Below are positions 35 through 47,744 of a stretch of 64,000 nt of DNA, piece after piece. A program made the position numbers and the translations under genes. Numbering within the stretch: position 1 is the first letter of the stretch; each line of letters starts with the position of its first letter. The stretch comes from Minisyncoccota bacterium (lineage in GTDB: Bacteria; Patescibacteriota; Minisyncoccia; Phycocordibacterales; DATDWN01). A model generated the notes under the pieces. The model had not been told where the DNA came from. It saw only the letters and a list, made by a program, of their open reading frames with translations, and searched no databases. The stretch covers positions 33,922 to 97,921 of the forward strand of contig DATDWN010000010.1 of assembly GCA_036517395.1 (NCBI GenBank), read 5' to 3'.

Positions 35-400
35 GTGTTAGGATGTGGAAATATGAGAGATATAAAAGCTTTAACAAAAAGGATAATAGATTTTCGCAAT
101 GCTCGAGACTGGAAGCAATTTCATAACCCAAAGGATTTGGCCTTGTCGCTTGTACTTGAAGCTACTGAGGTCATGGAACATTTTCAATGGAAAAGTAAGG
201 AGGAGATGGAAAAATACATAATAACGAATAAATCTGATATCGGAGAGGAATTAGCTGATGTTTTGTACTGGGTTCTTTTAATGAGTAACGATCTAAAAAT
301 AGATGTGTTAGAGGCGCTAGAGAAAAAAATTAAAATAAATGAAGACAAATATCCTGTAGCCAAAGCAAAGGGCAAGCACACGAAATACAACAAACTATAA
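35..400 (+). CDS. MazG-like nucleoside triphosphate pyrophosphohydrolase (all-alpha NTP-PPase)
   Basis: 121 aa. EATE/ELADV acidic helix motifs typical of the MazG/dCTPase family (LEATEVMEHF...EELADVLYWVL). Confidence 0.7.
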   Translation: MLGCGNMRDIKALTKRIIDFRNARDWKQFHNPKDLALSLVLEATEVMEHFQWKSKEEMEKYIITNKSDIGEELADVLYWVLLMSNDLKIDVLEALEKKIKINEDKYPVAKAKGKHTKYNKL

Positions 401-403
401 ATT

Positions 404-2716
404 ATGATAGTCTATCAATCAACAAAAGAAGTCTTTTTGAAAGATGTTTCTGGTGGATGTATTGAGGATATTATTCGTGAATCTGTAAAGCAAAAACTAA
501 ATAAAAATGTCGGAAACAATGAGTACATTTCGTGGAAAAATTCGCTTGGATCGATGTATCATGTTATCGATAATGAGCTTATTCCGAAAGATTCTGGGAT
601 AGCTATTGAGTATTCAATACCAAGAACAAAAAATAGAATAGACTTTATCATAACTGGCCAGGATGATAATAATAATGACAAGGTAATTATCATTGAGTTA
701 AAACAATGGACCGATATTCAACTTACTGAAAAAGATGCTGTGGTTCTAACTCGCTTCCAGCAAGGACTCAGTGAGGAACTTCATCCATCATATCAAGCGT
801 GGTCTTACTCGTCTCTATTGTTGGGGTTTAATGCGACAGTTTACAATGAAAATATTGGATTAGAGCCATGTGCCTACCTACACAATTATATTAGTGATGA
901 TGTGCTGAAAAATTCTTTTTACGATGACTATTTAAAAAAAGCACCAGTTTTTTGTAAAGGAGAAAAAAAGAAACTTCAGGATTTTATTACAAAGTTTATA
1001 AAACATGGAGACAAGACTAATATAATGTATCGCATTGATAATGGTGAAATCCGTCCATCTAAAAACCTCGCAGATAGTATGGCCTTGATGATTAAGGGTA
1101 ATCAGGAGTTTATAATGATAGATGACCAAAAAATTGTGTATGAAACTGCACTATCTTTTGCAAGAAAATCTAGCAGTTACAATAAAAATGTTTTAATCGT
1201 GGAAGGAGGCCCTGGTACTGGTAAGTCTGTTGTGGCTGTTAATTTGATTGTTGCTATAACCAAACTTGGTTTAAATACTCAATATGTAACTAAAAATGCA
1301 GCTCCTCGTGCCGTATTCGAAAGTAAACTAACAGGAACACTAAAAAAAACACAAATCTCAAATATGTTCACGGGCTCTGGTTCTTATATAGATTGTGAAC
1401 AAAATGTTTTTGATTGTCTTATTGTGGATGAGGCTCACAGACTCAACGAAAAGTCTGGTATGTTTAAAAATCTTGGTGAAAATCAAATAAAAGAAATAAT
1501 AGAGGCTTCAAAATCTTCAGTATTTTTTATTGATGAAGATCAGAAGGTGACATGGCATGACATTGGGAAAAAAGACGAAATTGAAAAATGGGCGAATAAA
1601 ATTGGCGCAAAAGTCCAAAATCTTAAACTCGAATCACAGTTTCGTTGCAATGGTTCTGACGGGTATTTGTCCTGGCTTGATAACATTCTTGGTGTAGAAG
1701 ATACTGCTAACAGTACATTAGATGGCATAGAATATGATTTTAAAGTCGTTGATTCTCCGAATGAATTGAGAGATTTAATTTTTGAAAAAAATAAGATAAA
1801 CAATAAAGCCCGACTTGTCGCGGGGTATTGTTGGGATTGGGTTAGTAAAAAGGACAAGAGTTTAAGTGACATTCTTATTCCAGAATATGATTTTGGCATG
1901 AAATGGAATCTCGCTAGTGATGGAAATATTTGGATTATCTCACCGAAATCTGTAAATGAAGTTGGGTGTATTCATACATGCCAAGGTCTTGAAGTTGATT
2001 ATGTGGGGGTGATAGTTGGAGATGATTTTATTGTGCGAAATGAAAAGGTGATTACTAACCCAAATAACCGTGCAAAGACCGACGCTTCATTGAAAGGATA
2101 TCGAAAAGAATTAAAAGAAAATCCAGAAGCTGCAATTAAGAAAGCTAATGCAATTATCAAAAATACTTATCGCACTCTTATGACGAGAGGCATGAAAGGA
2201 TGTTATGTATATTTTACGGACAAAGAAACAGAAAAATATTTTAAGAACAGAATCAAAACAACACTTTCTACTGATAAATATGTGACGAAAAAAATTGTGT
2301 CGCCATTTGTCTCAGATTTTGAAATGATTAGCTTACCAATGTTTGAATCTGTCGGATGTGGAGAATTGTTATACGCAGATCCAACCGTTCAAGAAATGAT
2401 CTTAGTAAGAAAAGATTACATGTCAGGAGGTTCAAAGTATTTTGTTTTAAAAACTTCTGGTGATTCTATGAATAAAGCTGGTATAAACGATGGAGATTTA
2501 GTTTTATGTAGAAAAGATTATCATCCAGATGAAGGTAACAAAGTAGTAGCCCTCATAGGAGAAGATGCTACGATAAAGGAGTATCACAGAGAAAATGGTT
2601 ATGTTGTTTTAAAACCATGTTCGACTAACCCAACTCACAAACCATTGAAGTTTACAAACAATGAAGAAATGAATGTACAAGGTGTGGTAATTAGGGTTAT
2701 AGAAGAAAACGAGTGA
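404..2716 (+). CDS. Multidomain protein: N-terminal PD-(D/E)xK-like nuclease motif, DUF2075-type P-loop ATPase/helicase, C-terminal S24 (LexA/UmuD-like) peptidase domain
   Basis: E..IDFII..IIELKQW (E-D-ExK). Walker A GGPGTGKS and Walker B LIVDEAHRL. QFRC motif typical of DUF2075. C-terminus has a VGCGE putative Cys-Gly cleavage site, then the GDSM serine and a conserved Lys (TIKEY) of S24 peptidases. Confidence 0.65.
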   Translation: MIVYQSTKEVFLKDVSGGCIEDIIRESVKQKLNKNVGNNEYISWKNSLGSMYHVIDNELIPKDSGIAIEYSIPRTKNRIDFIITGQDDNNNDKVIIIELKQWTDIQLTEKDAVVLTRFQQGLSEELHPSYQAWSYSSLLLGFNATVYNENIGLEPCAYLHNYISDDVLKNSFYDDYLKKAPVFCKGEKKKLQDFITKFIKHGDKTNIMYRIDNGEIRPSKNLADSMALMIKGNQEFIMIDDQKIVYETALSFARKSSSYNKNVLIVEGGPGTGKSVVAVNLIVAITKLGLNTQYVTKNAAPRAVFESKLTGTLKKTQISNMFTGSGSYIDCEQNVFDCLIVDEAHRLNEKSGMFKNLGENQIKEIIEASKSSVFFIDEDQKVTWHDIGKKDEIEKWANKIGAKVQNLKLESQFRCNGSDGYLSWLDNILGVEDTANSTLDGIEYDFKVVDSPNELRDLIFEKNKINNKARLVAGYCWDWVSKKDKSLSDILIPEYDFGMKWNLASDGNIWIISPKSVNEVGCIHTCQGLEVDYVGVIVGDDFIVRNEKVITNPNNRAKTDASLKGYRKELKENPEAAIKKANAIIKNTYRTLMTRGMKGCYVYFTDKETEKYFKNRIKTTLSTDKYVTKKIVSPFVSDFEMISLPMFESVGCGELLYADPTVQEMILVRKDYMSGGSKYFVLKTSGDSMNKAGINDGDLVLCRKDYHPDEGNKVVALIGEDATIKEYHRENGYVVLKPCSTNPTHKPLKFTNNEEMNVQGVVIRVIEENE

Positions 2717-4344: not shown

Positions 4345-4851
4345 ATGAAAGCAAAACTAGATCAACAACAAAACAACAACTCATCTCTTCAGCCAATTTT
4401 GTTTACTAGAGAGCAATACAAGGAACTGTTTCGAGCCATTAGCATATACGCTTTGATAAAACAGTCCTCAGCCATGCCCTATCTAGATCCGACTGGTTTA
4501 GGTGACTATATTATGCAACAGGGAGAAAAATTTGGTTTTGGCAAAGTGAAAGAAAATGAAGCCGATTGGTTTGATGAAGTGGAGGAGGAAGTTTTTGAGA
4601 ACATTTTCAATTACGCCCAAGGAGAGATGTTTCATCATTTAGCTCATATGCTCGCGGACAGAGATATCAGCATGGAGATTGAAGATGGAACTGGACTTTC
4701 AGAAGATGAATTGCCGTCCAGTATGTTTATGGATGCTGTGGCCAAGAGGGTGGATATGTATCTAAAAGAATTTGAAAAAAACGGAATTGATAATATAAAG
4801 GTCTTATGTAAGGATGCTGATAAATCTAGTCTAAATATTCGGCCCAAATAA
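4345..4851 (+). CDS. Hypothetical protein
   Basis: 168-aa ORF with no recognisable motif. Confidence 0.4.
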   Translation: MKAKLDQQQNNNSSLQPILFTREQYKELFRAISIYALIKQSSAMPYLDPTGLGDYIMQQGEKFGFGKVKENEADWFDEVEEEVFENIFNYAQGEMFHHLAHMLADRDISMEIEDGTGLSEDELPSSMFMDAVAKRVDMYLKEFEKNGIDNIKVLCKDADKSSLNIRPK

Positions 4852-4910
4852 AATTTTAGATAATTTTAGATAATTGGATAAATAAGGCTGTGGTGGTAAA
4901 GTTATAGGAT

Positions 4911-5465
4911 ATGGGAATAGAAGAAAGATACATTAATCATTTGGATGCTGGGTCGGGCGGGGATATGGGGCTTGAGGGGCAGGGTTTTCCAGCTGAGGAA
5001 GTGGTTGTTAATTTTTTCAATGCCAGTGGTTTTGATGCGCGTTTTTCCACAGCAACTGAGGATGAGGGGACAACTGATATTGGACCGAAACAGATAATAG
5101 ATGCGGTGGTTTATTATGATGGCAAACCAGCCATGGCTCCGCAAATTACTACTAGCACTATTAAAAGTTTCAGAGAGAAAAAATTAGACGAACTGCGTCA
5201 GAGACCATTTCTGCGTTTGGACGAAATGGGTCCGAGTGACCCGGCAATCCCAAAAGTTCTTATTTATTTGAAGGCGAAAGATGTCAAAGCTTTTGGAGAG
5301 GATCCTGATTTTAGCCGCCATCCAGAAATCGCGCTTCAGATTCTTAACAGTAGTATTATCAGTTTGAATTTTGATTTGAGTAAAACCGAAAACCCGCTGG
5401 AGCAAAAAGCTATCACGGAATTGGTAGGAATGCTTGAGACTGAGAAAAAGAAGTACATTCACTAG
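4911..5465 (+). CDS. Hypothetical protein
   Basis: 184-aa ORF with no recognisable motif. Confidence 0.4.
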   Translation: MGIEERYINHLDAGSGGDMGLEGQGFPAEEVVVNFFNASGFDARFSTATEDEGTTDIGPKQIIDAVVYYDGKPAMAPQITTSTIKSFREKKLDELRQRPFLRLDEMGPSDPAIPKVLIYLKAKDVKAFGEDPDFSRHPEIALQILNSSIISLNFDLSKTENPLEQKAITELVGMLETEKKKYIH

Positions 5466-5529
5466 CAGTTTTCAAATTTCAAAACAGTTTTCATTTTTTA
5501 TCGTATATGCTATTCTACGGGCAGATGTT

Positions 5530-5900
5530 CTAGCCCCAACTAACCAAAGTCAGCCCACCGAAGGAGGTGATTGCCGTGGGTGGACATGTGCGCGGTGAAC
5601 TCGCTGAGACTGCAGCCGCTCTATTGCGACTAAGTCTCACTGACTCGACAGTGGTGATCAAGGCGTTCATTGAGGATGGGTACTTCCACCTCGAGGAACT
5701 CCAGGGTCGCGCGACCTGCAACCCCCTGCAGGTGAACAGTCTGGCGCAACGAATCGATAGGGCTGAAAGTCTTCTCGTGACCAAGGCCAAACAGAAAGCG
5801 GGGTTGCTCGCTCGGCGGGAGGTGAGTCGATGAGGTGTCGTTGGGGAGAGTGCTCGTGTTTGCGTGGCCTAGGTCACAAAAGCACGAGCACTTTTCCATT
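5530..5900. other. GC-rich (about 58% GC) 370-nt segment without a consistent ORF; candidate structured RNA or foreign non-coding leader. Ends in a hairpin agtgctcgtg...cacgagcact followed by TTTT.
   Basis: Sharp compositional jump. Overlapping short ORFs on both strands. Terminal stem-loop at about 5850..5897. Confidence 0.3.
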
Positions 5901-5941
5901 TATAGTGACAACATGTCTAATTGTATAAGTCAATATTTCAT

Positions 5942-5970
5942 TTGACATAAACAATAGAGTGTGATAGAAT
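5942..5970 (+). promoter_or_regulatory. Sigma-70-type promoter TTGACA-17-TAGAAT
   Basis: Exact -35 hexamer with 17-bp spacer. SD AGGAGAAGG at 6033..6040 precedes the ATG at 6042. Confidence 0.5.
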
Positions 5971-6041
5971 ATTCAACAGATTGCGAAATACGGCTCATTT
6001 CATGGAGAAATGGGGTATTTCGCGAGTTTTTAGGAGAAGGT

Positions 6042-6938
6042 ATGAAAACACTCCGGTTCGTCGTAGTTTTTCTGATCGCGATTCTCATCTCGGTTTCGTC
6101 GACGTTCGCGCAGTCGGTTCCGACGGCGCCCACGGGGACGTCGCAGCCGGGCATCATTTCGCCAGTTGCGATGGACATCATCTCGATCAAGCCGACGGGG
6201 ATTCAGGGACGTGTCCAGGATTACTGGGGCAACCCGATTCCCGGCGCGTCCCTCGTCGTGTCGATCGTGCGACCCGATGGACAGAGTGGACAGCCATTCG
6301 CCGACCATGCGACCGCCAAGAAATTCGGGCCGTGCGAGTCGGGCAAGACGACGGACTGCGTTCGGAAAGATGGGAACTACAGCATCCCGAACTCGTCTCT
6401 CCCACAGTCGGACAACAAGTACGACGCGTGGCGGACTATCGACCTACGTGGCGAGGCCAAGGGTTTTGTCCATCACCTGGCTAACCCTGTTCAGATCAGT
6501 CTGGACGGGACCTCAAACCAGCAGGTGCAGGCGGTCCAGATGTACGAGAGTGGCTTCGCGACCAGTCAGGCCTATGCCTGGCGGGTGAACGACCGCGTGA
6601 CGGCCGTCGGGTTCTGGATGCGCCAGAACTGGACGGAGACCGTCTCCGTCAACTTCACCTTCAGGGGCTCGGCATGGACAGCGGTTCAAGCCGAGTATGG
6701 TATGACTCCGGTCTATGCCGAGGTTGGTCAAGGACCCCAAGGCAATGGTGTCTGGGTGGAGAGATGGTTCTGGACGCCTCAGAGCCCGACAGCACAGTTC
6801 GGCGGATCGTTCTGCGGGACGATCCAGATCAGCTCGGCCTACGAGGTCGAGCAGGTCAAAGCAGACCTGAAGGAGGTCTGCGTCAAGCTACCCAACGTCG
6901 CCGTAACAGGCGGTGGGGGTGGTGGAGGCAAGGGGTAA
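6042..6938 (+). CDS. Secreted protein with carboxypeptidase-regulatory-like (Cna-B-like) domain and C-terminal poly-Gly tail; GC-rich (about 60% GC)
   Basis: Signal peptide MKTLRFVVVFLIAILISVSSTFAQS. GRVQDYWGNPIPGASLVV motif. Ends GGGGGGGKG. The start is moved to the internal Met that carries a Shine-Dalgarno site. Confidence 0.6.
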   Translation: MKTLRFVVVFLIAILISVSSTFAQSVPTAPTGTSQPGIISPVAMDIISIKPTGIQGRVQDYWGNPIPGASLVVSIVRPDGQSGQPFADHATAKKFGPCESGKTTDCVRKDGNYSIPNSSLPQSDNKYDAWRTIDLRGEAKGFVHHLANPVQISLDGTSNQQVQAVQMYESGFATSQAYAWRVNDRVTAVGFWMRQNWTETVSVNFTFRGSAWTAVQAEYGMTPVYAEVGQGPQGNGVWVERWFWTPQSPTAQFGGSFCGTIQISSAYEVEQVKADLKEVCVKLPNVAVTGGGGGGGKG

Positions 6939-7001
6939 AGTAAATCCCGTGCCATGCTCATTCAAAGGCCGGTCCATCGCGGATCGGCCTTTTGTCATGC
7001 A

Positions 7002-7137
7002 TGTCCGCACACCAACTCTGGCATTGTGTCTTCCGTTGCTAATGTTGATAATTTAAGCGACAAATGTCAGTTGGTCATTGTTTGATTACACTATAATTTT
7101 GACACAGATGCAACGATGCCAGAGTTGGTGTGCGGAT
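7002..7137. mobile_element. MITE-like element (family 1, CCAAC variant) with about 21-bp terminal inverted repeats tccgcacaccaactctggcat
   Basis: Left end tccgcacaccaactctggcat; right end atgccagagttggtgtgcgga. Non-coding interior. Confidence 0.75.
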
Positions 7138-7159
7138 AAAGTTATCCACAGTTTCTTTA

Positions 7160-7195
7160 TTGACAGGTGAACCAGCGTTCACTAAACTGTATTTA
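7160..7195 (+). promoter_or_regulatory. Promoter TTGACA-17-TAAACT with embedded Cheo-type LexA box GAACCAGCGTTC (7169..7180)
   Basis: GAAC-N4-GTTC palindrome lying exactly in the spacer between -35 and -10, upstream of the lexA operon. Confidence 0.6.
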
Positions 7196-7218
7196 TATAA
7201 AAACTAACACAAAATAAA

Positions 7219-7419
7219 ATGTCCAAAAACAATTTAGAAAAAACATTGAGGAAGGAGTTAGAAGTTTTGAACGATGTGATAGATAGGAGAATATTGCGAG
7301 GCTTGTCATACAGTCGGGAGGCAAAGAGGCACAAGTTTGTTCTCTCTAACTTGTCGAGGATTAGACGAGAGTCGAGTGTTGGTAGTGGTTGGCTGTCGAG
7401 ATCGTTTTCAATAATTTAG
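7219..7419 (+). CDS. Small basic hypothetical protein (66 aa), first gene of lexA operon
   Basis: ORF between the LexA-box promoter and lexA. No homology recognised. Confidence 0.3.
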   Translation: MSKNNLEKTLRKELEVLNDVIDRRILRGLSYSREAKRHKFVLSNLSRIRRESSVGSGWLSRSFSII

Positions 7420-7441
7420 ATTTGAAAAATTTCATAAAAAC

Positions 7442-8026
7442 ATGTCAGAAGAAAAATACATAGTACAGAAAAATAAAATCACCTCTTTCTACCAGAAGCA
7501 TCGGCGCATGCCTGGGTATAAAGAAATCATGGATATGGTTGGGTTCAAATCGAAGAACGCCGTTTACAAACTTATAAACAAGCTGGTGGAGGATGAAGTG
7601 GTGGACAAAGATTCCAAAGGCAGACTTACTCCGATAAAAATATTTGGAGCGATACCGCTTCTCGGTCTTGTCGAGGCTGGGTTTCCGACAAGCGTGGATG
7701 AAGATAGATCGGAATCACTGAGCATAGACGAGTATCTGGTTGGTGGGAGCAAACAAGGCTCAACATATTTGCTGGAGGTAAAGGGGGATTCGATGATAGA
7801 TGAAGGGATAAGAGAAGGTGATCTGGTTCTGGCCGAGAGGCGAGGCGATCCGAAAGACGGCGATATAGTTATAGCCGAGGTTGATGGTGGTTGGACTATG
7901 AAATATTTCAAAAAAAAGGGCGATTTGATTTACCTAAAACCGGCGAATAAAAATTACTCACCTATATATCCGCAGTATGACCTAAAAGTTGCGGCGATTG
8001 TTAAGGGGGTGATAAGGAAATATTGA
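7442..8026 (+). CDS. lexA: LexA repressor (S24 peptidase family)
   Basis: N-terminal wHTH. VEAG Ala-Gly cleavage site, GDSM serine and downstream Lys. 194 aa. Confidence 0.85.
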   Translation: MSEEKYIVQKNKITSFYQKHRRMPGYKEIMDMVGFKSKNAVYKLINKLVEDEVVDKDSKGRLTPIKIFGAIPLLGLVEAGFPTSVDEDRSESLSIDEYLVGGSKQGSTYLLEVKGDSMIDEGIREGDLVLAERRGDPKDGDIVIAEVDGGWTMKYFKKKGDLIYLKPANKNYSPIYPQYDLKVAAIVKGVIRKY

Positions 8027-8433
8027 TGATAGATAATGAGAGCAAGGAATACGATGTATGGAACAGATTGAAGAAAAAGATTCAATCTGGTTCAGATATA
8101 CCCAATTTTTTTCCACAGGAGGGTGAAGTATGGATGTCTTCACTTGGTAAAAACATTGGATTTGAACAAAATGGAAGTGGGGCTAACTTTTCCAGGCCGA
8201 TATTAGTAGTTAAAAAGTTTAATAACCACATGTTTTGGTGTACTTCACTTTCAACTAAACAAAAAAAGTTTGATTTCTACTACAATTTTACAGATCCGAA
8301 TAGAGAAAAAGTTTCTGTTATCCTTGCTCAGTTAAAGTTGGTTAGTGTCAAAAGATTAAAAAGAAAGTTATATGATATTTCATCAGGTAATTTTACAGAA
8401 ATAAAATGCAAATTAAGAGGATTTTTGGAGTAA
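8023..8433 (+). CDS. MazF/PemK-family toxin-like protein (endoribonuclease fold)
   Basis: GEVWMS..GFEQNG..RPILVV..CTSLST..VILAQLKLVSVKRL pattern matches the MazF/PemK fold. The ATGA overlap with the lexA stop suggests translational coupling. Confidence 0.55.
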   Translation: MMIDNESKEYDVWNRLKKKIQSGSDIPNFFPQEGEVWMSSLGKNIGFEQNGSGANFSRPILVVKKFNNHMFWCTSLSTKQKKFDFYYNFTDPNREKVSVILAQLKLVSVKRLKRKLYDISSGNFTEIKCKLRGFLE

Positions 8434-8437
8434 TCGA

Positions 8438-8460
8438 AATCCCACATCTCTGCGGGATTT
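8438..8460 (+). terminator. Stem-loop aaatccc-acatctctgc-gggattt after the lexA operon
   Basis: 7-bp perfect stem immediately after the mazF-like stop. The T-run is weak. Confidence 0.4.
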
Positions 8461-8542
8461 CTCGGAGCCTTTCGGCACTTTGTAACAAAAGTATATATGA
8501 ATGAATATAAATGTCAAGTATAAAATGTGGTAATATAAAAAT

Positions 8543-9109
8543 ATGGATCAATTTTTAATTGAAGCTAGAAGGCTGATGTATAGTGAAGTTGAGAAAACTG
8601 GAATTCCAGCAAAAGCACAGGTTGATTTAGCTGTGGAAAAAGGTATCGAGTTGGCCAAGAGACTCAATGTGAATGTGGATATTATTGAAGCAAGTACACT
8701 ACTCATGGATTGCATGGTTGGGCAGGCTGTAAAGGCTAAACGACTGAATGATCACGTCAGCATGTCACTTGAAAAAGCGAAGGAATTATTGAATCAATCT
8801 TCTTTATCAATAAAAGAAAAAGATAATATATATCATTGCATATTGGAGCATCATGGTGTTGAGAAATTTTATTCTCTTGAATCTGAAATTTGTTGCAATG
8901 CAGATTGTTATAAATTTGCTTCGATGAGAGGTTTTGTTATAGCTTTAAGATATACAAGAGACATGCCGCTAAAGGATTTGGTCGCATTACTCACACAAAA
9001 AGTAGAGGAAAAATGGAGTATTGTCAGTCTTCAGTCGGTCAAAGACGATTTAAAAGATCAATACCAAATGGTTACTAAAATACTTCATAACTTATCATTA
9101 GAAATATGA
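8543..9109 (+). CDS. Hypothetical protein (degenerate HD-domain-like)
   Basis: ASTLLMDCMVGQ resembles the HD motif, with the His replaced. Confidence 0.35.
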   Translation: MDQFLIEARRLMYSEVEKTGIPAKAQVDLAVEKGIELAKRLNVNVDIIEASTLLMDCMVGQAVKAKRLNDHVSMSLEKAKELLNQSSLSIKEKDNIYHCILEHHGVEKFYSLESEICCNADCYKFASMRGFVIALRYTRDMPLKDLVALLTQKVEEKWSIVSLQSVKDDLKDQYQMVTKILHNLSLEI

Positions 9110-9726
9110 AACTAACAAAATATGAACAATCGGGGTTTGTGTTGGAGACTGATGCTGGATTTCGGTTGGCTTTTGATATTGGAGCATATACTCCTGTCGA
9201 AAAGCTAGAGGGTGTAGCGGTAGATGCAATGCTGGTCTCGCATCTGCACGGCGATCACTTTTCACCTGAACAGATAAAAGCACTTAGTGCTAAAAAACTT
9301 TACTTAAATCAGGAATGTGTGGATTTGTGGGGAGAAGGAGGTAATGGTATTGAAGTAGAAAGAGTTAAGGTTGGGGATAGTGTTAAAATCGGAGAGATTA
9401 GTGTGGAACTTTTTGATGTTAATCATGGGACAAATATTTCAATGAGACCAAAAGAGAACTTTGGTTTTTTGATGAAAGCAGATGGGCGGACTGTCTATTT
9501 TGCTGGGGATATGTTTTATGAGTCAGGTATGGATGTGAGTAGTCTTGAAGTTGATTTTGCACTTATACCAGTCGGAATTTTTTATACATTTGGTCCGGAA
9601 GAGGCTTTTGATTTTGCCAAGAAGTTCAAAGGGATTGGCAAAATTATCCCAATGCATTATGAAAAAACTCCAGGGACAAAAAGTAAGTTTATGGAATTAG
9701 CAAAAGGAACATTTGAATTAGAATAA
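9106..9726 (+). CDS. MBL-fold metallo-hydrolase
   Basis: HLHGDH zinc-binding motif (VSHLHGDHF). Confidence 0.7.
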   Translation: MKLTKYEQSGFVLETDAGFRLAFDIGAYTPVEKLEGVAVDAMLVSHLHGDHFSPEQIKALSAKKLYLNQECVDLWGEGGNGIEVERVKVGDSVKIGEISVELFDVNHGTNISMRPKENFGFLMKADGRTVYFAGDMFYESGMDVSSLEVDFALIPVGIFYTFGPEEAFDFAKKFKGIGKIIPMHYEKTPGTKSKFMELAKGTFELE

Positions 9727-9733
9727 ATATCCC

Positions 9734-10120
9734 ATGGTCAGATACAAAATGAGAGTTATACGTGGAGCGTTTACCGATCCTACTGTACTGGATCAGCTGA
9801 ACGCTGTCATTATTGAAAAATATGATCGGGATGAGTGGATAAGTATTGACGAAGTAGTGGTTACACTAGATGAGGTAGAACAGTTACAGAAGTTAATGAT
9901 AAAACATTACGACGACCCAGATGTTCCTTGGTATATGGACGGATACCAAGTTGATGATAAGAACAAAATGATTGTCGCTTTTGGAGCTGATGATGGTGAA
10001 GGGGGAAGAATCTTTCAGTTTGATCGTAGTGATAAAAATATGATGCAAATCGTTGCTAAGTATGGAGTATTAAAAGGCATTCCTGCAGAACAGATGGATT
10101 TTGGAGAGATTGATTTCTAA
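9734..10120 (+). CDS. Hypothetical protein
   Basis: 128-aa ORF with no recognisable motif. Confidence 0.4.
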   Translation: MVRYKMRVIRGAFTDPTVLDQLNAVIIEKYDRDEWISIDEVVVTLDEVEQLQKLMIKHYDDPDVPWYMDGYQVDDKNKMIVAFGADDGEGGRIFQFDRSDKNMMQIVAKYGVLKGIPAEQMDFGEIDF

Positions 10121-10379
10121 TAATATGAAAATATTTGTTAAAGCTAAGGCGGGGGCTAGGGAGAATAAAGTGGTTCCGCCTGTGGCAAGACTTTTGCCAC
10201 TTGGGGATGATGAAGAGGAGTTTTATAGCGTGTCTGTAAAAGAGCCACCACGGCAAGGAAAAGCCAATGAGGCAATAATGAAAGCGTTGGCAGAGTATTT
10301 CAAGGTCTCATTTTCAGAAATTCGACTAGTTTCTGGCGCTTCTTCAAAGAAAAAAGTTTTCGAGATCAAAAATCAATGA
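10101..10379 (+). CDS. DUF167/YggU-family protein
   Basis: MKIFVKAKAGAREN...SVSVKEPPRQGKANEAIMKALAEYF matches the YggU/UPF0235 pattern. Confidence 0.6.
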   Translation: MERLISNNMKIFVKAKAGARENKVVPPVARLLPLGDDEEEFYSVSVKEPPRQGKANEAIMKALAEYFKVSFSEIRLVSGASSKKKVFEIKNQ

Positions 10380-10837: not shown

Positions 10838-10975
10838 TTTCTGGTCTAATGTATGGGTGTAAAAAAGTCAATGGTTTGGGGCTAGTCCCGCAGTGAAGTT
10901 GGCATCTGTATTTTATGCACAGTAAATCTGTGCTAGACAGACTTCTACTACTGTGGATAACCCATTTGACATTAT

Positions 10976-23972: not shown

Positions 23973-24106
23973 CATCCGCACACCAACTTTGCCATCGTCC
24001 TGCTTTTTCAAAAAACTTACTCCTGCTTTATAATTTTTGTTGTAATTTGCTTAAAGTACACCTTAAATCAGGACATAAAAAGTAATGGCAGGGTTGGTGT
24101 TCGGAT
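23973..24106. mobile_element. Degenerate MITE-like element family 1, in tandem with the previous copy
   Basis: Intact left end catccgcacaccaactttgcc. Degenerate right end gggttggtgttcggata. Unrelated interior. Confidence 0.55.
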
Positions 24107-24130: not shown

Positions 24131-27085
24131 ATGTCATCAGACAAAATCTTCGAAGAACGATATAAAAATCTAAACCAGGAACAGAAAAAAGCCGTTGATA
24201 CTATTGAGGGTCCGGTTATGGTTGTGGCCGGTCCCGGCACTGGTAAGACCACGATTCTGACCCTGCGTATTGCCCAGATTTTGCGTAAAGCCACAGGGGT
24301 TTCCGCCAATGCTATTTTAGCTATTACCTACACAGACGCTGGAGTGAAAGTGATGAGAAGCAAACTACGAGAAATTATAGGCAACACCGCCCATGATGTT
24401 TACATTCACACATTCCACTCTTTTGCATCTAGCATGATAGCAGAGTACCCGGATCACTTTTTAAATATAAATGATTTTCGTCAAATAACTCCGGTCGAAC
24501 AAGAGAGTTTGGTAAGAGAAATAATTACAGAACCAAAGTTCAAAGACCTGCGACCTCTGGGCAAACCGGACGCCTATTTGTCGGGAATTATTCGCGCCAT
24601 AGGTGACGCAAAAAAAGAAGCTTTGATTCCCGAAATGGTTGCTGAAAACGCCCTAAAACAAATAAAAAAAATAGAAGAAGACGAAGACAGCATCTCAACG
24701 CGTGGGGCGACGAAGGGCCAACTCAAAGCTGATGCTTTAGAGAGTATAGAGAAATTGAAAAAGACCATTCTTTTTGCCAGAGTTTATGACCGCTATGAGC
24801 AAATAAAAAGGGAGAAGAAACTTCGTGACTATGACGACCTTATTGTTGAGCTTTTGGTGGCTTTGCAGAACGATGAGCTTTTTCTGCGTCTTGTCCAAGA
24901 AAGATTTCTCTATATCTTAGTTGATGAACATCAAGATACGAACGATTCACAAAACTTTATTATTGCTCTCTTGGCTGAGTTTTTCGAGACACCAAATATT
25001 TTTATTGTGGGGGATGAAAAGCAGGCCATATATCGTTTTCAGGGTGCTTCTGTAGAGAACTTTCTTCGTTTACGCAAGAGGTGGCCGGATATGCAACTTA
25101 TTCACCTCGATACAAACTATCGTTCGCACCAGTCCATACTGGATGCTGTTTGGAGCATGATTGAGAATAATTATGATGGGGAAGAGCACAAAGACTTGCG
25201 GGTTAAACTAAAATCCGAATCTGGGGAAAAGAAGAAACCAGTGGATATTGTCACCGCTGAAAATACTCTGGCTATGGAGGAATATTTGATAGGTGAACTG
25301 AAACGAATTACTTCCGATGATCCAGAGGCCAGTGTAGCGATTATTGTTAGGCGTAATCGAGAACTAGAAAGAGTGCTCCGGTTTCTTGATTTGCGTGGAG
25401 TAGAGGTTTCTTCCGAAAGAAGCGTTGATATATTTCACCATCCTATTGGTATGGCCTTTTTTGACCTTATTGAATATATAAACGACCAGACCAAAATCGA
25501 ATCACTAGCAAAGTCCTTGGCCAGTGGATTGTGGGGACTGTCTCATGTATCCTCAATAGAACTTATTCGCTCTATTGCAAAAGAAGAGTTGGGAAATTTG
25601 GATAAGATTTTACCACAACTAAAAGCCATAAGAGAGAGGATGCTTTCCGATGGCGCTCTTGAAGCTTTGATTTTCATCGCGGAATCCTCTGGTCTTACGG
25701 ATATTATTGCTCGCAATCCTGCCAATGTGTCGGTCTGGCGCGGTATCGTTACTTTGGCTGAGTCCGTAATAAGAGACACACAGGCGGATAATCCGGCGGA
25801 ACTTTTCGCTAGTTTGCTTTCATATCGAGATTCGGCCGAACTAAAACCGGTTAAAGTTTCTGTTGGCGCACCAGATTTGAAAATCAAGGCCATGACCGCT
25901 CATGGTTCCAAAGGTTTGGAATTTGATTATGTTTTTATACCATATGCTACGGAAGAGGCTTGGGTCGGTCGTGTTTGGGGTTCGTCTTTTATTTTGCAGG
26001 ATAGAAACTTTGGCGATCATAATGTCGAGGATATAAGACGGCTTTTTTATGTTGCTATAACCAGAGCCAAGAAACATGTCAGTGTTTTGTATGCCAAAGA
26101 AGAGTCTGATGGACGAGTTTTGACCCCACTTAGATTTATAAATGAGTTGTATTCAAAAGATGTCAAATCGATTGAACTATCGAGAGTCCAGCTTGCTTTG
26201 GATTTTCAGGAAGTAAAAGCAAAGAAAAACAAAACGGATGAAAAAGACAACCAGTACCAGAAGCTCATGATAAATGAGGCCAAAAAAGTCCTAACGGAAA
26301 ATGGTCTTTCGGTGACAGCCCTGAATCATTTTCTGGAATGTCCGAGCAAGTTTTTGTATGAGAGTATTTTGAAGTTGCCACAGGCGCCGAGTGCCTCCTC
26401 GGAGAAGGGTACGGCCATGCACGAAGCTATCTCGGAGATTTGGAGATCAAAGAGGGGTGGGGTGGAAGATATTGAAAAAATTATCACATCAATCACAGCG
26501 GAATATATTGACAGATCTCTAATATCCAAAGGTGATAAGGAGGCTTTGAAAAAGGAACTTGCTCTTAACGCTCCGGCTGTTGCCAAGTCACTTTTTCCTC
26601 ATTTTACCACTACATCAAAAACCTCTGTTGAGAGATGGGTGGAAGCGCCCTTCGACACATCTTATGATAAAGAAAAAATCACAATACATGTACATGGAAA
26701 ACTTGATGTTATTTTAGAAGATTTGGACGAGGTATCCGTTTTTGACTACAAGACACGACAGGCCATGTCTGTGGCTAACATAAAAGGCCAAAACAAGGGC
26801 AACGAAAATGGAAACTATTTCAGACAGCTTGTTTTTTATAAACTGCTTTTGGAAAATGTTCACTTGGGCAGGAATAAGAAGGTTTCCACTTCCTTGGTTT
26901 TTGTTTCTCCTGATGATAAAGGTAGGTGTCCGATTATAACTCTAGAAGTAACATCAGATGATATTAAGAAAGTTAAAGATGAGATAAATGATTTAATAGA
27001 GAATGTTTGGAATGGCGAGTTCGTTAGACACTACTGCAGTAATGCAAACTGCTCATACTGTGCTTATCGTAAACTACTTCAATAA
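24131..27085 (+). CDS. UvrD/PcrA-family ATP-dependent helicase fused to a C-terminal RecB-like PD-(D/E)xK nuclease with Cys cluster (AddB/Cas4-like)
   Basis: GPGTGKT Walker A, DEHQDT Walker B. C-terminal VFDYKT nuclease motif and a CSNANCSYC cysteine cluster. Confidence 0.8.
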   Translation: MSSDKIFEERYKNLNQEQKKAVDTIEGPVMVVAGPGTGKTTILTLRIAQILRKATGVSANAILAITYTDAGVKVMRSKLREIIGNTAHDVYIHTFHSFASSMIAEYPDHFLNINDFRQITPVEQESLVREIITEPKFKDLRPLGKPDAYLSGIIRAIGDAKKEALIPEMVAENALKQIKKIEEDEDSISTRGATKGQLKADALESIEKLKKTILFARVYDRYEQIKREKKLRDYDDLIVELLVALQNDELFLRLVQERFLYILVDEHQDTNDSQNFIIALLAEFFETPNIFIVGDEKQAIYRFQGASVENFLRLRKRWPDMQLIHLDTNYRSHQSILDAVWSMIENNYDGEEHKDLRVKLKSESGEKKKPVDIVTAENTLAMEEYLIGELKRITSDDPEASVAIIVRRNRELERVLRFLDLRGVEVSSERSVDIFHHPIGMAFFDLIEYINDQTKIESLAKSLASGLWGLSHVSSIELIRSIAKEELGNLDKILPQLKAIRERMLSDGALEALIFIAESSGLTDIIARNPANVSVWRGIVTLAESVIRDTQADNPAELFASLLSYRDSAELKPVKVSVGAPDLKIKAMTAHGSKGLEFDYVFIPYATEEAWVGRVWGSSFILQDRNFGDHNVEDIRRLFYVAITRAKKHVSVLYAKEESDGRVLTPLRFINELYSKDVKSIELSRVQLALDFQEVKAKKNKTDEKDNQYQKLMINEAKKVLTENGLSVTALNHFLECPSKFLYESILKLPQAPSASSEKGTAMHEAISEIWRSKRGGVEDIEKIITSITAEYIDRSLISKGDKEALKKELALNAPAVAKSLFPHFTTTSKTSVERWVEAPFDTSYDKEKITIHVHGKLDVILEDLDEVSVFDYKTRQAMSVANIKGQNKGNENGNYFRQLVFYKLLLENVHLGRNKKVSTSLVFVSPDDKGRCPIITLEVTSDDIKKVKDEINDLIENVWNGEFVRHYCSNANCSYCAYRKLLQ

Positions 27086-35858: not shown

Positions 35859-35993
35859 ATCCGCACACTAACCTTGGTATTGTCTCCCTGTTGTGACATA
35901 AAAAGTTAAACAAAAGTTAGAGATATATTTAAATTTGGGATGTATCTCCAGAATCTGAGACTGGAGGCAACGATACCAAAGTTAGTGTGCGGA
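35859..35993. mobile_element. MITE-like element family 1 (CTAAC variant)
   Basis: Ends atccgcacactaaccttggtattgtctccctgttg / caacgataccaaagttagtgtgcgga. Confidence 0.8.
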
Positions 35994-47606: not shown

Positions 47607-47744
47607 CATCCGCACACTAACTTTGGTATGGTTGCATCCAGTCTCAAAATCTAGATGCACATCCCAATTTAGATACAATTTCTAACTTTTGCCTAACTCA
47701 ACATATGGCAACAGGGAGACAATACCAAAGTTAGTGTGCGGATA
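47607..47744. mobile_element. MITE-like element family 1 (inverse orientation)
   Basis: catccgcacactaactttggtat...ggcaacagggagacaataccaaagttagtgtgcggata. Ends 7 bp before the ATG of the 47752 gene. Confidence 0.8.

Follow-up and report, generated by a model that had tools for sequence, protein, structure and literature searches.

The window analysed here is a 64,000-nucleotide stretch of a Minisyncoccota genome (contig DATDWN010000010.1, positions 33,922 to 97,921), from an uncultured bacterium of the Paceibacteria/Zambryskibacteria type. In it, a gene for a protein of the MazF/PemK family forms the last gene of the lexA operon, and a predicted small RNA gene on the opposite strand runs towards this gene and ends at its stop codon. 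We consider it probable that two things are joined at this locus, an operon controlled by LexA and a mobile, promoterless gene of the MazF fold, which has been inserted behind lexA together with a convergent small RNA that would serve as its antitoxin. The operon begins with a small open reading frame (ORF) of 66 amino acids (aa), called orf66, and the coordinates of all these features are collected in Table 1. A preliminary description of the same locus had recognised the LexA box, the lexA gene and the MazF/PemK signature of the third gene, and had offered two explanations, namely a LexA-repressed toxin induced by DNA damage or LexA itself as an antitoxin-like partner of the toxin.

The element downstream of the MazF-like gene carries much of the argument. 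The gene of the window belongs to a subfamily of 134-135-aa proteins, here called A-type, and a paralogous subfamily of 127-aa proteins is called B-type. In 79 A-type loci the 200 nucleotides (nt) after the MazF-like stop codon were scanned for promoters with a threshold of at least 10 of 12 consensus positions, and a promoter pointing back at the gene was reported in 63 of them, against 13 with a promoter on the opposite strand. The -10 hexamer ends 53-68 nt from the stop codon, a fixed distance whatever lies beyond, and position-specific conservation runs through TTGAC, TGn and TATACT and, about 6 nt later, UACAAAGUG. The transcribed consensus reads ACAAAGUGCC-GNRA/UUCG-GGC-UCCGAGAAA-CCCCGC-loop-GCGGGG-UUUCGA, a predicted RNA of about 50 nt; in most loci its end is 3-5 nt away from the stop codon, and its core sequence is present in 81 of 81 loci. 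RNAalifold folded 79 distinct sequences into two hairpins, P1 and P2, with 98.4% of cells paired and two-sided changes at 8 of 13 pairs. Compensatory cells numbered 51 versus 4.4 in shuffled alignments, none of 500 shuffles was as good, and slid controls collapsed. Near-invariant positions also occur among the unpaired nucleotides, in a 5' segment containing ACA, in CCGAGAAA/UUCGA with its possible tandem G.A motif, and in the loops. Of the 79 sequences, 71 have a GNRA or UUCG loop on P1, and G.U pairs outnumber A.C pairs by 17 to 4; since both hold only when the minus strand is read, an RNA from that strand is favoured.

The linkage of this element to the MazF-like gene is strict. The covariance model, R1, has a single match in the window (8428-8490, minus strand, 70 bits, E = 7.5e-18), a full-length match at the same position in 80 of 80 loci with flanking sequence, and no significant match in 437 kb of loci that lack an A-type MazF-like gene. 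Rfam held no family for the small RNA at the gathering threshold and gave only chance matches at E <= 10, and a scan of viral contigs with the RNA pattern produced one chance match, in a high-GC contig. A convergent unit of the same kind, promoter plus RNA, accompanies the B-type subfamily and each of two other paralogues; its RNA reads ACA(G/A)(U/A)UGGC-UUCG-GCC-linker-CCCCC-GCAA-GGGGG, with compensatory variants CCCUC/GAGGG and CCCAC/GUGGG. Because each MazF-like subfamily has its own RNA subtype, protein and RNA are co-inherited as a cassette of about 0.5 kb. Two other interpretations of the element were rejected. A 52-aa ORF on the minus strand (8393-8551) covers the RNA, but its frame is not conserved and its start lies 5' of the RNA promoter; an integron attC site does not fit, as the cassettes are single and not arrayed and a promoter is part of the element. 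L005 and L015 (3279-3341, minus strand, 47.5 bits) hold an additional, degenerate copy of the A-type RNA, in which the linker CCGAGA is replaced by CACAAAA. No A-type gene adjoins this copy, whose neighbour is the convergent RNA of a 130-aa paralogue, and it may be what is left of a lost cassette.

The MazF/PemK identity of the third gene product, first proposed from its signature, was confirmed by both profile and structure. The protein scores 27.8 bits against PF02452 (gathering cut-off 23.1), 22 of 22 aligned family members match the same model (best E-value 1.1e-10), and the PHROG 'MazF-like growth inhibitor' matches residues 4-127 at 1.6e-12. PADLOC gave no match for any gene of the locus, and a sequence-profile search of the PDB returned EndoA/YdcE at E ~0.05, which is weakly informative. 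A shallow alignment of 22 near-identical sequences gave an AlphaFold2 model with a predicted local distance difference test score (pLDDT) of 41, which was unusable, and the B-type subfamily was added for the final model. With the two subfamilies aligned, the pLDDT was 79.8 and the predicted template modelling score 0.71, and in a Foldseek search of the PDB the top 50 matches were all MazF, PemK or YdcE structures (probability 1.00, TM-scores 0.6-0.77). Residues R57-P58 and T77 align with R25-P26 and T48 of EndoA, the MazF of Bacillus subtilis, in which we take R25 and T48 to be the catalytic residues; R57 and T77 are invariant in both Paceibacteria subfamilies. An extra N-terminal helix (residues 4-20, with W12, N13 and K16 invariant) is added to the canonical MazF fold. 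On this evidence the third gene product is a MazF-fold protein, a predicted endoribonuclease and putative toxin. The exact 135-aa protein is on record under 'Candidatus Paceibacterota'; its close relatives number 865, are 60-85% identical to it and are spread through Zambryski-, Nomura-, Vogel-, Kaiser-, Wolfe-, Yanofsky- and Doudnabacteria and others.

The MazF-like gene is joined tightly to lexA. The start/stop overlap reported earlier is real, but it is not an ATGA: the junction reads TGATG, a 1-nt overlap in which the ATG at 8026 shares the A of the lexA TGA, or TTGA if the alternative start codon, TTG at 8023, is used. An AAGGA sequence resembling a Shine-Dalgarno site lies 5' of the start, within the last lexA codons. 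The possibility that the overlap is an assembly error, which had been raised at the outset, can be dismissed because four independent assemblies, made from different samples, show exactly the same junction. In the promoter scan the MazF-like gene had no promoter of its own here, the sole nearby promoter-like match (8009-8037) overlapping its start codon.

A survey of the neighbours of the A-type gene in 80 species-representative genomes showed that this junction belongs to one lineage. In none of the 80 other species does lexA stand beside the A-type gene, none of the other neighbours of the window gene recurs there, and no gene of the MazE/PemI/AbrB type was found upstream or nearby. A conserved protein antitoxin was sought on either side of the gene and was found on neither; the largest cluster of neighbouring ORFs, from 8 loci, is made up of antisense pseudo-ORFs that overlie the small RNA. 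What lies 5' of the MazF-like gene ranges from a gene for a 1303-aa protein to no gene at all, with NUDIX, rplB and uracil-DNA glycosylase (UDG) genes among the examples, and it is often tightly abutted. The B-type proteins, which are about 30% identical to the window protein, are found after NUDIX (with a 1-nt gap), after rplB inside a ribosomal protein operon, after UDG, or alone, and a genome can hold several paralogous MazF-like cassettes side by side.

The region 3' of lexA is itself highly variable in the clade. It holds DUF167 and metallo-beta-lactamase (MBL)-fold genes, judged from homology to genes of the window, and genes resembling Mpg, MGMT and DinB, judged from N-terminal sequences. 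The closest LexA relatives (92-93% identity) have other genes after lexA and no MazF-like gene, and a genome with an 87% identical LexA reads orf66-lexA-DUF167-rpoB with no insert. In five loci (L095, L100, L102, L115 and L120) homologues of the MBL-fold, p128 and DUF167 genes of the window (9106-10379) directly follow lexA; since relatives have these genes in that place, the MazF-like cassette and the 188-aa HD-like gene behind it (8543-9109, 34% GC) look like insertions that separate lexA from these older neighbours. Composition changes at the same junction, from 43% GC and 46% GC at third codon positions (GC3) in lexA to 31% and 29% in the MazF-like gene. Given this drop in GC3 and the variable region after lexA, the cassette looks like a recent insertion into a hot spot, and for that reason the tight junction with the upstream stop codon is not evidence for an antitoxin.

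The operon into which the cassette appears to have been inserted is conserved among relatives. We retrieved from metagenomes 80 loci whose LexA is 62-93% identical to that of the window, 71 of them with enough upstream sequence. The preliminary description had placed a perfect GAAC-N4-GTTC box in the 17-nt spacer of a TTGACA/TAAACT promoter and had called this an autoregulated lexA arrangement; reading of the sequence agrees with the placement, and the same architecture recurs with a perfect box in 65 of the 71 loci and with one mismatch in 5 more. In 61 unique related loci the extended palindrome GGTGAAC-N4-GTTCAC(C/T) forms the spacer between TTGACn and TATAAT or TATACT, and the box is invariably found ahead of the orf66 homologue, never in the interval that separates it from lexA. 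The 12-mer by itself is not rare, with 2 matches in the window versus 0.97 expected, so that the significance of the box comes from its conservation across loci and not from rarity. The second match, at 24530, was rejected as an operator, as it is inside a UvrD-like helicase ORF and does not have the extended flanks. Judged by sequence conservation, the predicted autoregulated lexA promoter is real.

A site identical to the DnaA-box consensus, TTATCCACA, stands in front of the promoter. Of 59 unique promoters from related loci, 41 have this site no more than 50 nt ahead of the LexA box, with 16-18 nt as the favoured distance, and 49 have TATCCACA. One further perfect TTATCCACA site occurs in the window (10952-10960, minus strand), and the 9-mer is also seen at or within the small-RNA promoters of some B-type cassettes (L132, L173, L176 and L188). 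The site may reflect co-regulation by DnaA or may be an element that promoters of these bacteria commonly share. Judged from these alignments, box, orf66 and lexA, with the DnaA-box-like TTATCCACA in front, form a conserved operon of a clade of Paceibacteria (Zambryskibacteria and relatives).

The lexA product matches the NCBIfam equivalog TIGR00498 at 113.5 bits (cut-off 110.95) and its S24 domain matches PF00717 (Peptidase_S24) at 3e-26. The Ala-Gly cleavage site, serine and lysine pointed out earlier hold good, since Ala79-Gly80 and the S117/K154 dyad are invariant in 19 homologues. The N-terminal region scores 13.7 bits against the winged-helix model PF01726, below the cut-off of 23.7, and TIGR00498 aligns from residue 13 on. 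An orf66 homologue lies directly 5' of lexA in 74 of the 80 metagenome loci. Nearly all of these loci are without a MazF-like gene, which makes orf66 a part of the lexA operon and not of a toxin-antitoxin (TA) set, contrary to the earlier suggestion that it might be a third TA component. The family comprises 68 unique sequences of 45-82 aa (one of 45 aa, the others 63-82) with the motif M-SK..LEK.L..EL..LN..ID.KI.KG.SY..EA.RHKF and a short aromatic or hydrophobic C-terminal tail, and it forms 166 clusters at 50% identity in a library of 1.84 billion proteins. No match to it was found in Pfam, NCBIfam, PHROGs, PADLOC or the PDB.

A general association of LexA boxes with the MazF-like family was looked for and rejected, a box being present 5' of the gene in 1 of 77 other loci. 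Two further lineages nevertheless combine the two. In L132 and L173 a B-type cassette with its own convergent small RNA lies 1 nt behind an orf-lexA pair (L132, 3009-3392; L173, 1727-2884 and downstream). In a Nomurabacteria genome (L049, 3966-4003) the MazF-like gene is preceded by a promoter of its own that contains a perfect, extended LexA operator, GTGAACGATTGTTCAC; here GTGAAC-N4-GTTCAC lies between a -35-like hexamer and TATAAT, with TTTTCCACA in front. Matches to 'lexA' 2-3 kb downstream in L043, L049 and L071 were discarded, as they are S24 domains of helicase fusions, at least in L049. On these sequences the SOS wiring of such cassettes is not a family trait but has arisen at least three times, in the window lineage, in L132/L173 and in L049. 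The earlier proposal of a damage-induced, LexA-repressed toxin of the MazF type is accordingly narrowed: it is plausible for the window lineage, where the gene has no promoter of its own and overlaps the lexA stop codon and where two other lineages offer parallels under a LexA box, but it does not extend to the family.

Table 1. Features of the lexA operon and of the convergent small RNA gene (positions in the window)
Feature	Position	Strand	Details and basis
DnaA-box-like site TTATCCACA	7142..7150	+	Identical to DnaA-box consensus; ~10 nt 5' of the -35 hexamer
lexA-operon promoter	7160..7188	+	-35 TTGACA 7160-7165; -10 TAAACT 7183-7188; sequence reading and promoter scan
LexA operator GGTGAACCAGCGTTCAC	7166-7182	+	Fills the 17-nt spacer; core GAACCAGCGTTC at 7169-7180
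orf66	7219..7419	+	Small basic protein, first gene of lexA operon; conserved in related loci
lexA	7442..8026	+	194 aa; TIGR00498 and Peptidase_S24
MazF/PemK-fold gene	8026..8433	+	135 aa; stop codon 8431-8433; PF02452, structure model
Small RNA gene (predicted)	8428..8490	-	Predicted transcript start near 8483 (ACAAAGUG...); covariance model
Small RNA, P1	8476-8467	-	GCC-GAAA-GGC
Small RNA, linker UCCGAGAAA		-	Between P1 and P2
Small RNA, P2	8461-8436	-	RNA ends at the MazF-like stop codon
Small-RNA promoter	8490..8517	-	-35 TTGACA 8517-8512, 16 nt, -10 TATACT 8495-8490; 11/12 consensus positions

A possible circuit can be put together from these elements. The MazF-like ORF would be transcribed only from the LexA-repressed promoter and would be translationally coupled to lexA. 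RecA-stimulated cleavage of LexA upon DNA damage would then lead to more MazF-like mRNA; because the cassette has no promoter of its own, it should be SOS-inducible here. The small RNA, which we infer to be transcribed constitutively from its own strong promoter, would be the antitoxin. Two routes are conceivable, base-pairing with the 3' end of the toxin mRNA in a type I-like manner and binding of the toxin protein as a pseudo-substrate in a type III-like manner, and they are not exclusive. We lean towards type III-like binding because the unpaired nucleotides of the RNA are nearly invariant, while a cis-antisense RNA needs no conservation of sequence. The protein that recognises the RNA would most economically be the equally conserved MazF-like protein, perhaps by way of its extra basic N-terminal helix. 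Toxin activity would appear only once SOS-driven transcription outruns the small RNA. LexA in this circuit would be a transcriptional switch and not an antitoxin, and the RNA would be a buffer. It is possible, and we offer this as a tentative generalisation, that an RNase of the MazF family with an extra N-terminal helix for RNA recognition, neutralised by a convergently encoded, single-copy RNA of two hairpins that binds the protein and is not purely antisense, represents an undescribed and widespread class of TA-like module, a promoterless cassette of about 0.5 kb that plugs into host operons and was recruited at least three times into the SOS regulon of bacteria of the candidate phyla radiation (CPR), which includes the Paceibacteria; DNA damage would then set off RNA cleavage.

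Several alternatives to a LexA-controlled MazF-like gene with an RNA antitoxin have to be weighed. The one that was raised in the preliminary description, in which LexA is a proteolytically inactivated, antitoxin-like partner of the MazF-like protein in a TA pair of a new type to which orf66 might belong as a third member, now seems very improbable to us. The lexA gene does occupy the position of an antitoxin, with the MazF-like gene overlapping its stop codon, and a B-type gene is likewise found 1 nt behind lexA in another lineage, but lexA adjoins the A-type gene in none of the 80 species, the upstream gene can be anything, and junctions just as tight occur behind unrelated genes such as NUDIX. 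The closest LexA relatives (87-93% identity) have no MazF-like gene, and the orf66-lexA pair is conserved without it. The locus contains no gene for a MazE-like protein, which would leave the role of antitoxin vacant for LexA were it not that the MazF-like gene has a strictly co-inherited, conserved convergent RNA as its partner. The transcription factor MrpC was once proposed as the antitoxin of the solitary MazF-mx, a precedent that is itself disputed (PMC4803016). Since both proteins are widespread in the clade, LexA could still act on the MazF-like protein in trans.

It is also conceivable, but on balance unlikely, that the MazF-like protein serves the Paceibacteria as a conserved housekeeping RNase, either non-toxic or of narrow specificity, that the RNA is its substrate, its cofactor or a 3' regulatory element, and that the position behind lexA is accidental. 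The very high sequence conservation for a toxin fits this explanation, as do copies inside core operons, for example after rplB, and the fact that the region 3' of lexA is a hot spot for many different genes; homologues of toxins often occur alone and have perhaps been adopted for other roles (PMC2701414). The cassette, on the other hand, behaves like a mobile element, with a context that differs in nearly every species and a foreign composition here. Paralogous cassettes stand side by side in some genomes, relatives are carried on plasmids and prophages, and three independent links to LexA are, by count alone, judged to be more than pure accident. A third explanation concerns the downstream element only, which could be a bidirectional terminator next to an unrelated outward or insulating promoter, with no small RNA gene. 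P2 is indeed a GC-rich hairpin directly after the stop codon, though the terminator scan did not call it. We regard this explanation as quite unlikely, as the promoter faces the hairpins and the gene at a fixed 53-68 nt regardless of what lies beyond, a terminator would have no need of the GNRA/UUCG loops of P1 or of the invariant linker CCGAGAAA, and each protein subfamily has an RNA subtype of its own.

There are also points that weigh directly against a toxin held in check by a small RNA. The RNA is predicted from comparative genomics only, its promoter match is weaker in 16 of the 79 loci, and the window copy has a weak U-tract after P2 (UUUCGAUUACUCC). An antisense mechanism would need the mRNA to run through P2, because the RNA barely overlaps the coding sequence, and P2 alone could act as a bidirectional terminator. 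The toxicity of the 135-aa protein is likewise inferred, and an identity of 60-85% across many lineages is unusual for a toxin and could indicate a housekeeping RNase. The cassette is linked to LexA in only 3 lineages of about 90 loci, so control by the SOS response could be incidental. The equation of the Campylobacter toxin CjpT with a homologue of the window protein, discussed below, is likely rather than certain.

Other features of the window deserve mention. A repeat of about 133 bp that resembles a miniature inverted-repeat transposable element (MITE) is present at 7004-7136, 23975-24105 and 47609-47742, with a lone arm at 35973-35993. Its terminal inverted repeats are 21-33 nt long (TCCGCACACCAACTCTGGCAT), the arm has 7 matches versus 0 expected, and no Rfam family corresponds to it. 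One copy abuts the lexA promoter and another lies just 5' of the gene for the UvrD-like helicase (984 aa). Immediately 5' of the MITE-like copy and the lexA promoter is a 325-aa ORF (5961-6938) with 59% GC and a GC3 of 72% in a genome of 41% GC; it is absent from this position in some otherwise identical strains (L001, L002 and L004), and the region is probably foreign DNA. At the start of the window, a gene for a MazG-like pyrophosphohydrolase (35-400, plus strand) is followed by one for a 770-aa fusion protein (404-2716, plus strand), which joins a Schlafen group-3 helicase domain (PF09848, 1e-106) to a C-terminal LexA-like S24 autopeptidase domain with the GDSM motif present. The fusion protein is possibly a helicase or defence protein activated by RecA*. 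In L049 the same pair of genes (4642-7141) lies directly 3' of the cassette of MazF-like gene and small RNA.

If the proposed circuit is correct, a MazF subfamily with a dedicated small RNA in place of a protein antitoxin would blur the classification of TA systems into types I, II and III. Such a subfamily would be one that has been kept in many lineages of Paceibacteria, and probably also on plasmids and prophages of Campylobacter and Helicobacter; it would explain some of the numerous MazF genes listed as 'solo' by annotation pipelines, and it would add an RNA family to those in Rfam. The copy in the lexA operon would provide a simple, testable circuit in organisms with tiny genomes and almost no studied regulation. 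The conserved unit of DnaA box, LexA box, orf66 and lexA, for its part, points to a small SOS effector in these bacteria.

Small SOS effectors adjoin lexA in Gram-positive bacteria, where they are known as yneA, sosA, chiZ and divS. They resemble orf66 in being small protein genes beside lexA under a Cheo-type LexA box. These genes are divergent from lexA and encode membrane-anchored division inhibitors, whereas orf66 is co-directional with lexA, is the first gene of the operon, and has neither a transmembrane segment nor detectable homology to any of the four. By analogy orf66 may be an SOS effector, which we mention as a lead only.

MazF is the textbook toxin of type II, neutralised by a protein. 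The window protein shares with mazEF, pemIK and kis-kid the toxin family (PF02452), the fold and the positions of the catalytic arginine and threonine; it differs in having no adjacent gene of the MazE/PemI/AbrB type in 80 species and in its extra N-terminal helix with the invariant W-N..K motif. The geometry of the cassette resembles that of txpA/RatA and bsrG/SR4 of the Bacillota, which are convergent type I systems overlapping at their 3' ends. As in those systems, the toxin gene and the RNA gene converge and meet at their 3' ends. The toxins of type I, which PMC6563280 describes as usually small hydrophobic peptides, are unlike the candidate toxin here, a soluble 135-aa protein with an RNase fold, and the overlap with the coding sequence is a few nt.

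In its predicted logic, a LexA switch with an RNA buffer, the operon resembles SymE/SymR of Escherichia coli, in which an SOS-induced, LexA-repressed toxin is checked by a constitutive, cis-encoded antisense RNA (PMC1891008). SymE, however, has an AbrB/MazE fold and not that of MazF, SymR overlaps the 5' end of its target, and symE has its own promoter with a LexA box and is not the last gene of the lexA operon. The type III systems (ToxIN, CptIN and TenpIN) offer a precedent for an endoribonuclease of Kid/MazF-like fold that is inhibited by a structured RNA, and in ToxN an extended helix is the main site at which ToxI is recognised (PMC5086642). This helix may be the analogue of the extra N-terminal helix of the window protein. 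Type III antitoxins are tandem repeats located 5' of the toxin on the same strand, with a terminator between (PMC5086642), while the RNA of the Paceibacteria is single-copy, downstream and convergent, and the window protein matches PF02452 and MazF structures, not ToxN. MazF-mx of Myxococcus xanthus is likewise a solitary MazF placed in a host regulatory programme under a transcription factor (PMC4803016). In that case the proposed binding of the toxin by MrpC has come under dispute; for the window protein nothing speaks for binding by LexA, and an RNA partner is present.

The closest parallel may be in the Campylobacterota, the only group in which a tblastn search of phage and plasmid records found proteins 33-36% identical to that of the window. 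They are carried by the Campylobacter jejuni plasmid pVir, by CJIE4 prophages, and by plasmids of Helicobacter and Nitratiruptor (L189-L192), and share the N-terminal motif FD.WN..KK with the window protein; no annotated protein antitoxin lies beside them. Each of the three plasmid loci, pVir (L189, NC_008770, 30634-31125) and those of Helicobacter and Nitratiruptor, has a convergent promoter-like site followed by hairpins whose end adjoins the stop codon. For the CJIE4 prophage (L192) the scan gave no promoter, and only a -10-like TGATATAAT followed by hairpins was read by eye. According to a citation in PMC7826846, pVir carries an experimentally validated type I system in which cjrA is the RNA antitoxin and cjpT the protein toxin (Shen et al. 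2016, Mol Microbiol 101:909). It is likely that cjpT is the PemK-like gene of pVir, which encodes a 134-aa protein of the PemK/MazF family with 36% identity to the window protein. This pair is the chief outside argument for taking the RNA of the Paceibacteria to be an antitoxin. The RNA predicted on pVir is about 85 nt long with three hairpins, shows no sequence similarity to that of the Paceibacteria and has no link to LexA. LexA-repressed toxins with RNA antitoxins are already known, and for the combination of a MazF-like toxin and an RNA antitoxin there is probably one characterised precedent, that of Campylobacter. What appears to be new is an RNA family absent from Rfam and strictly paired with a MazF subfamily across CPR bacteria, the promoterless, plug-in behaviour of the cassette, and its place as the last gene of a lexA operon.

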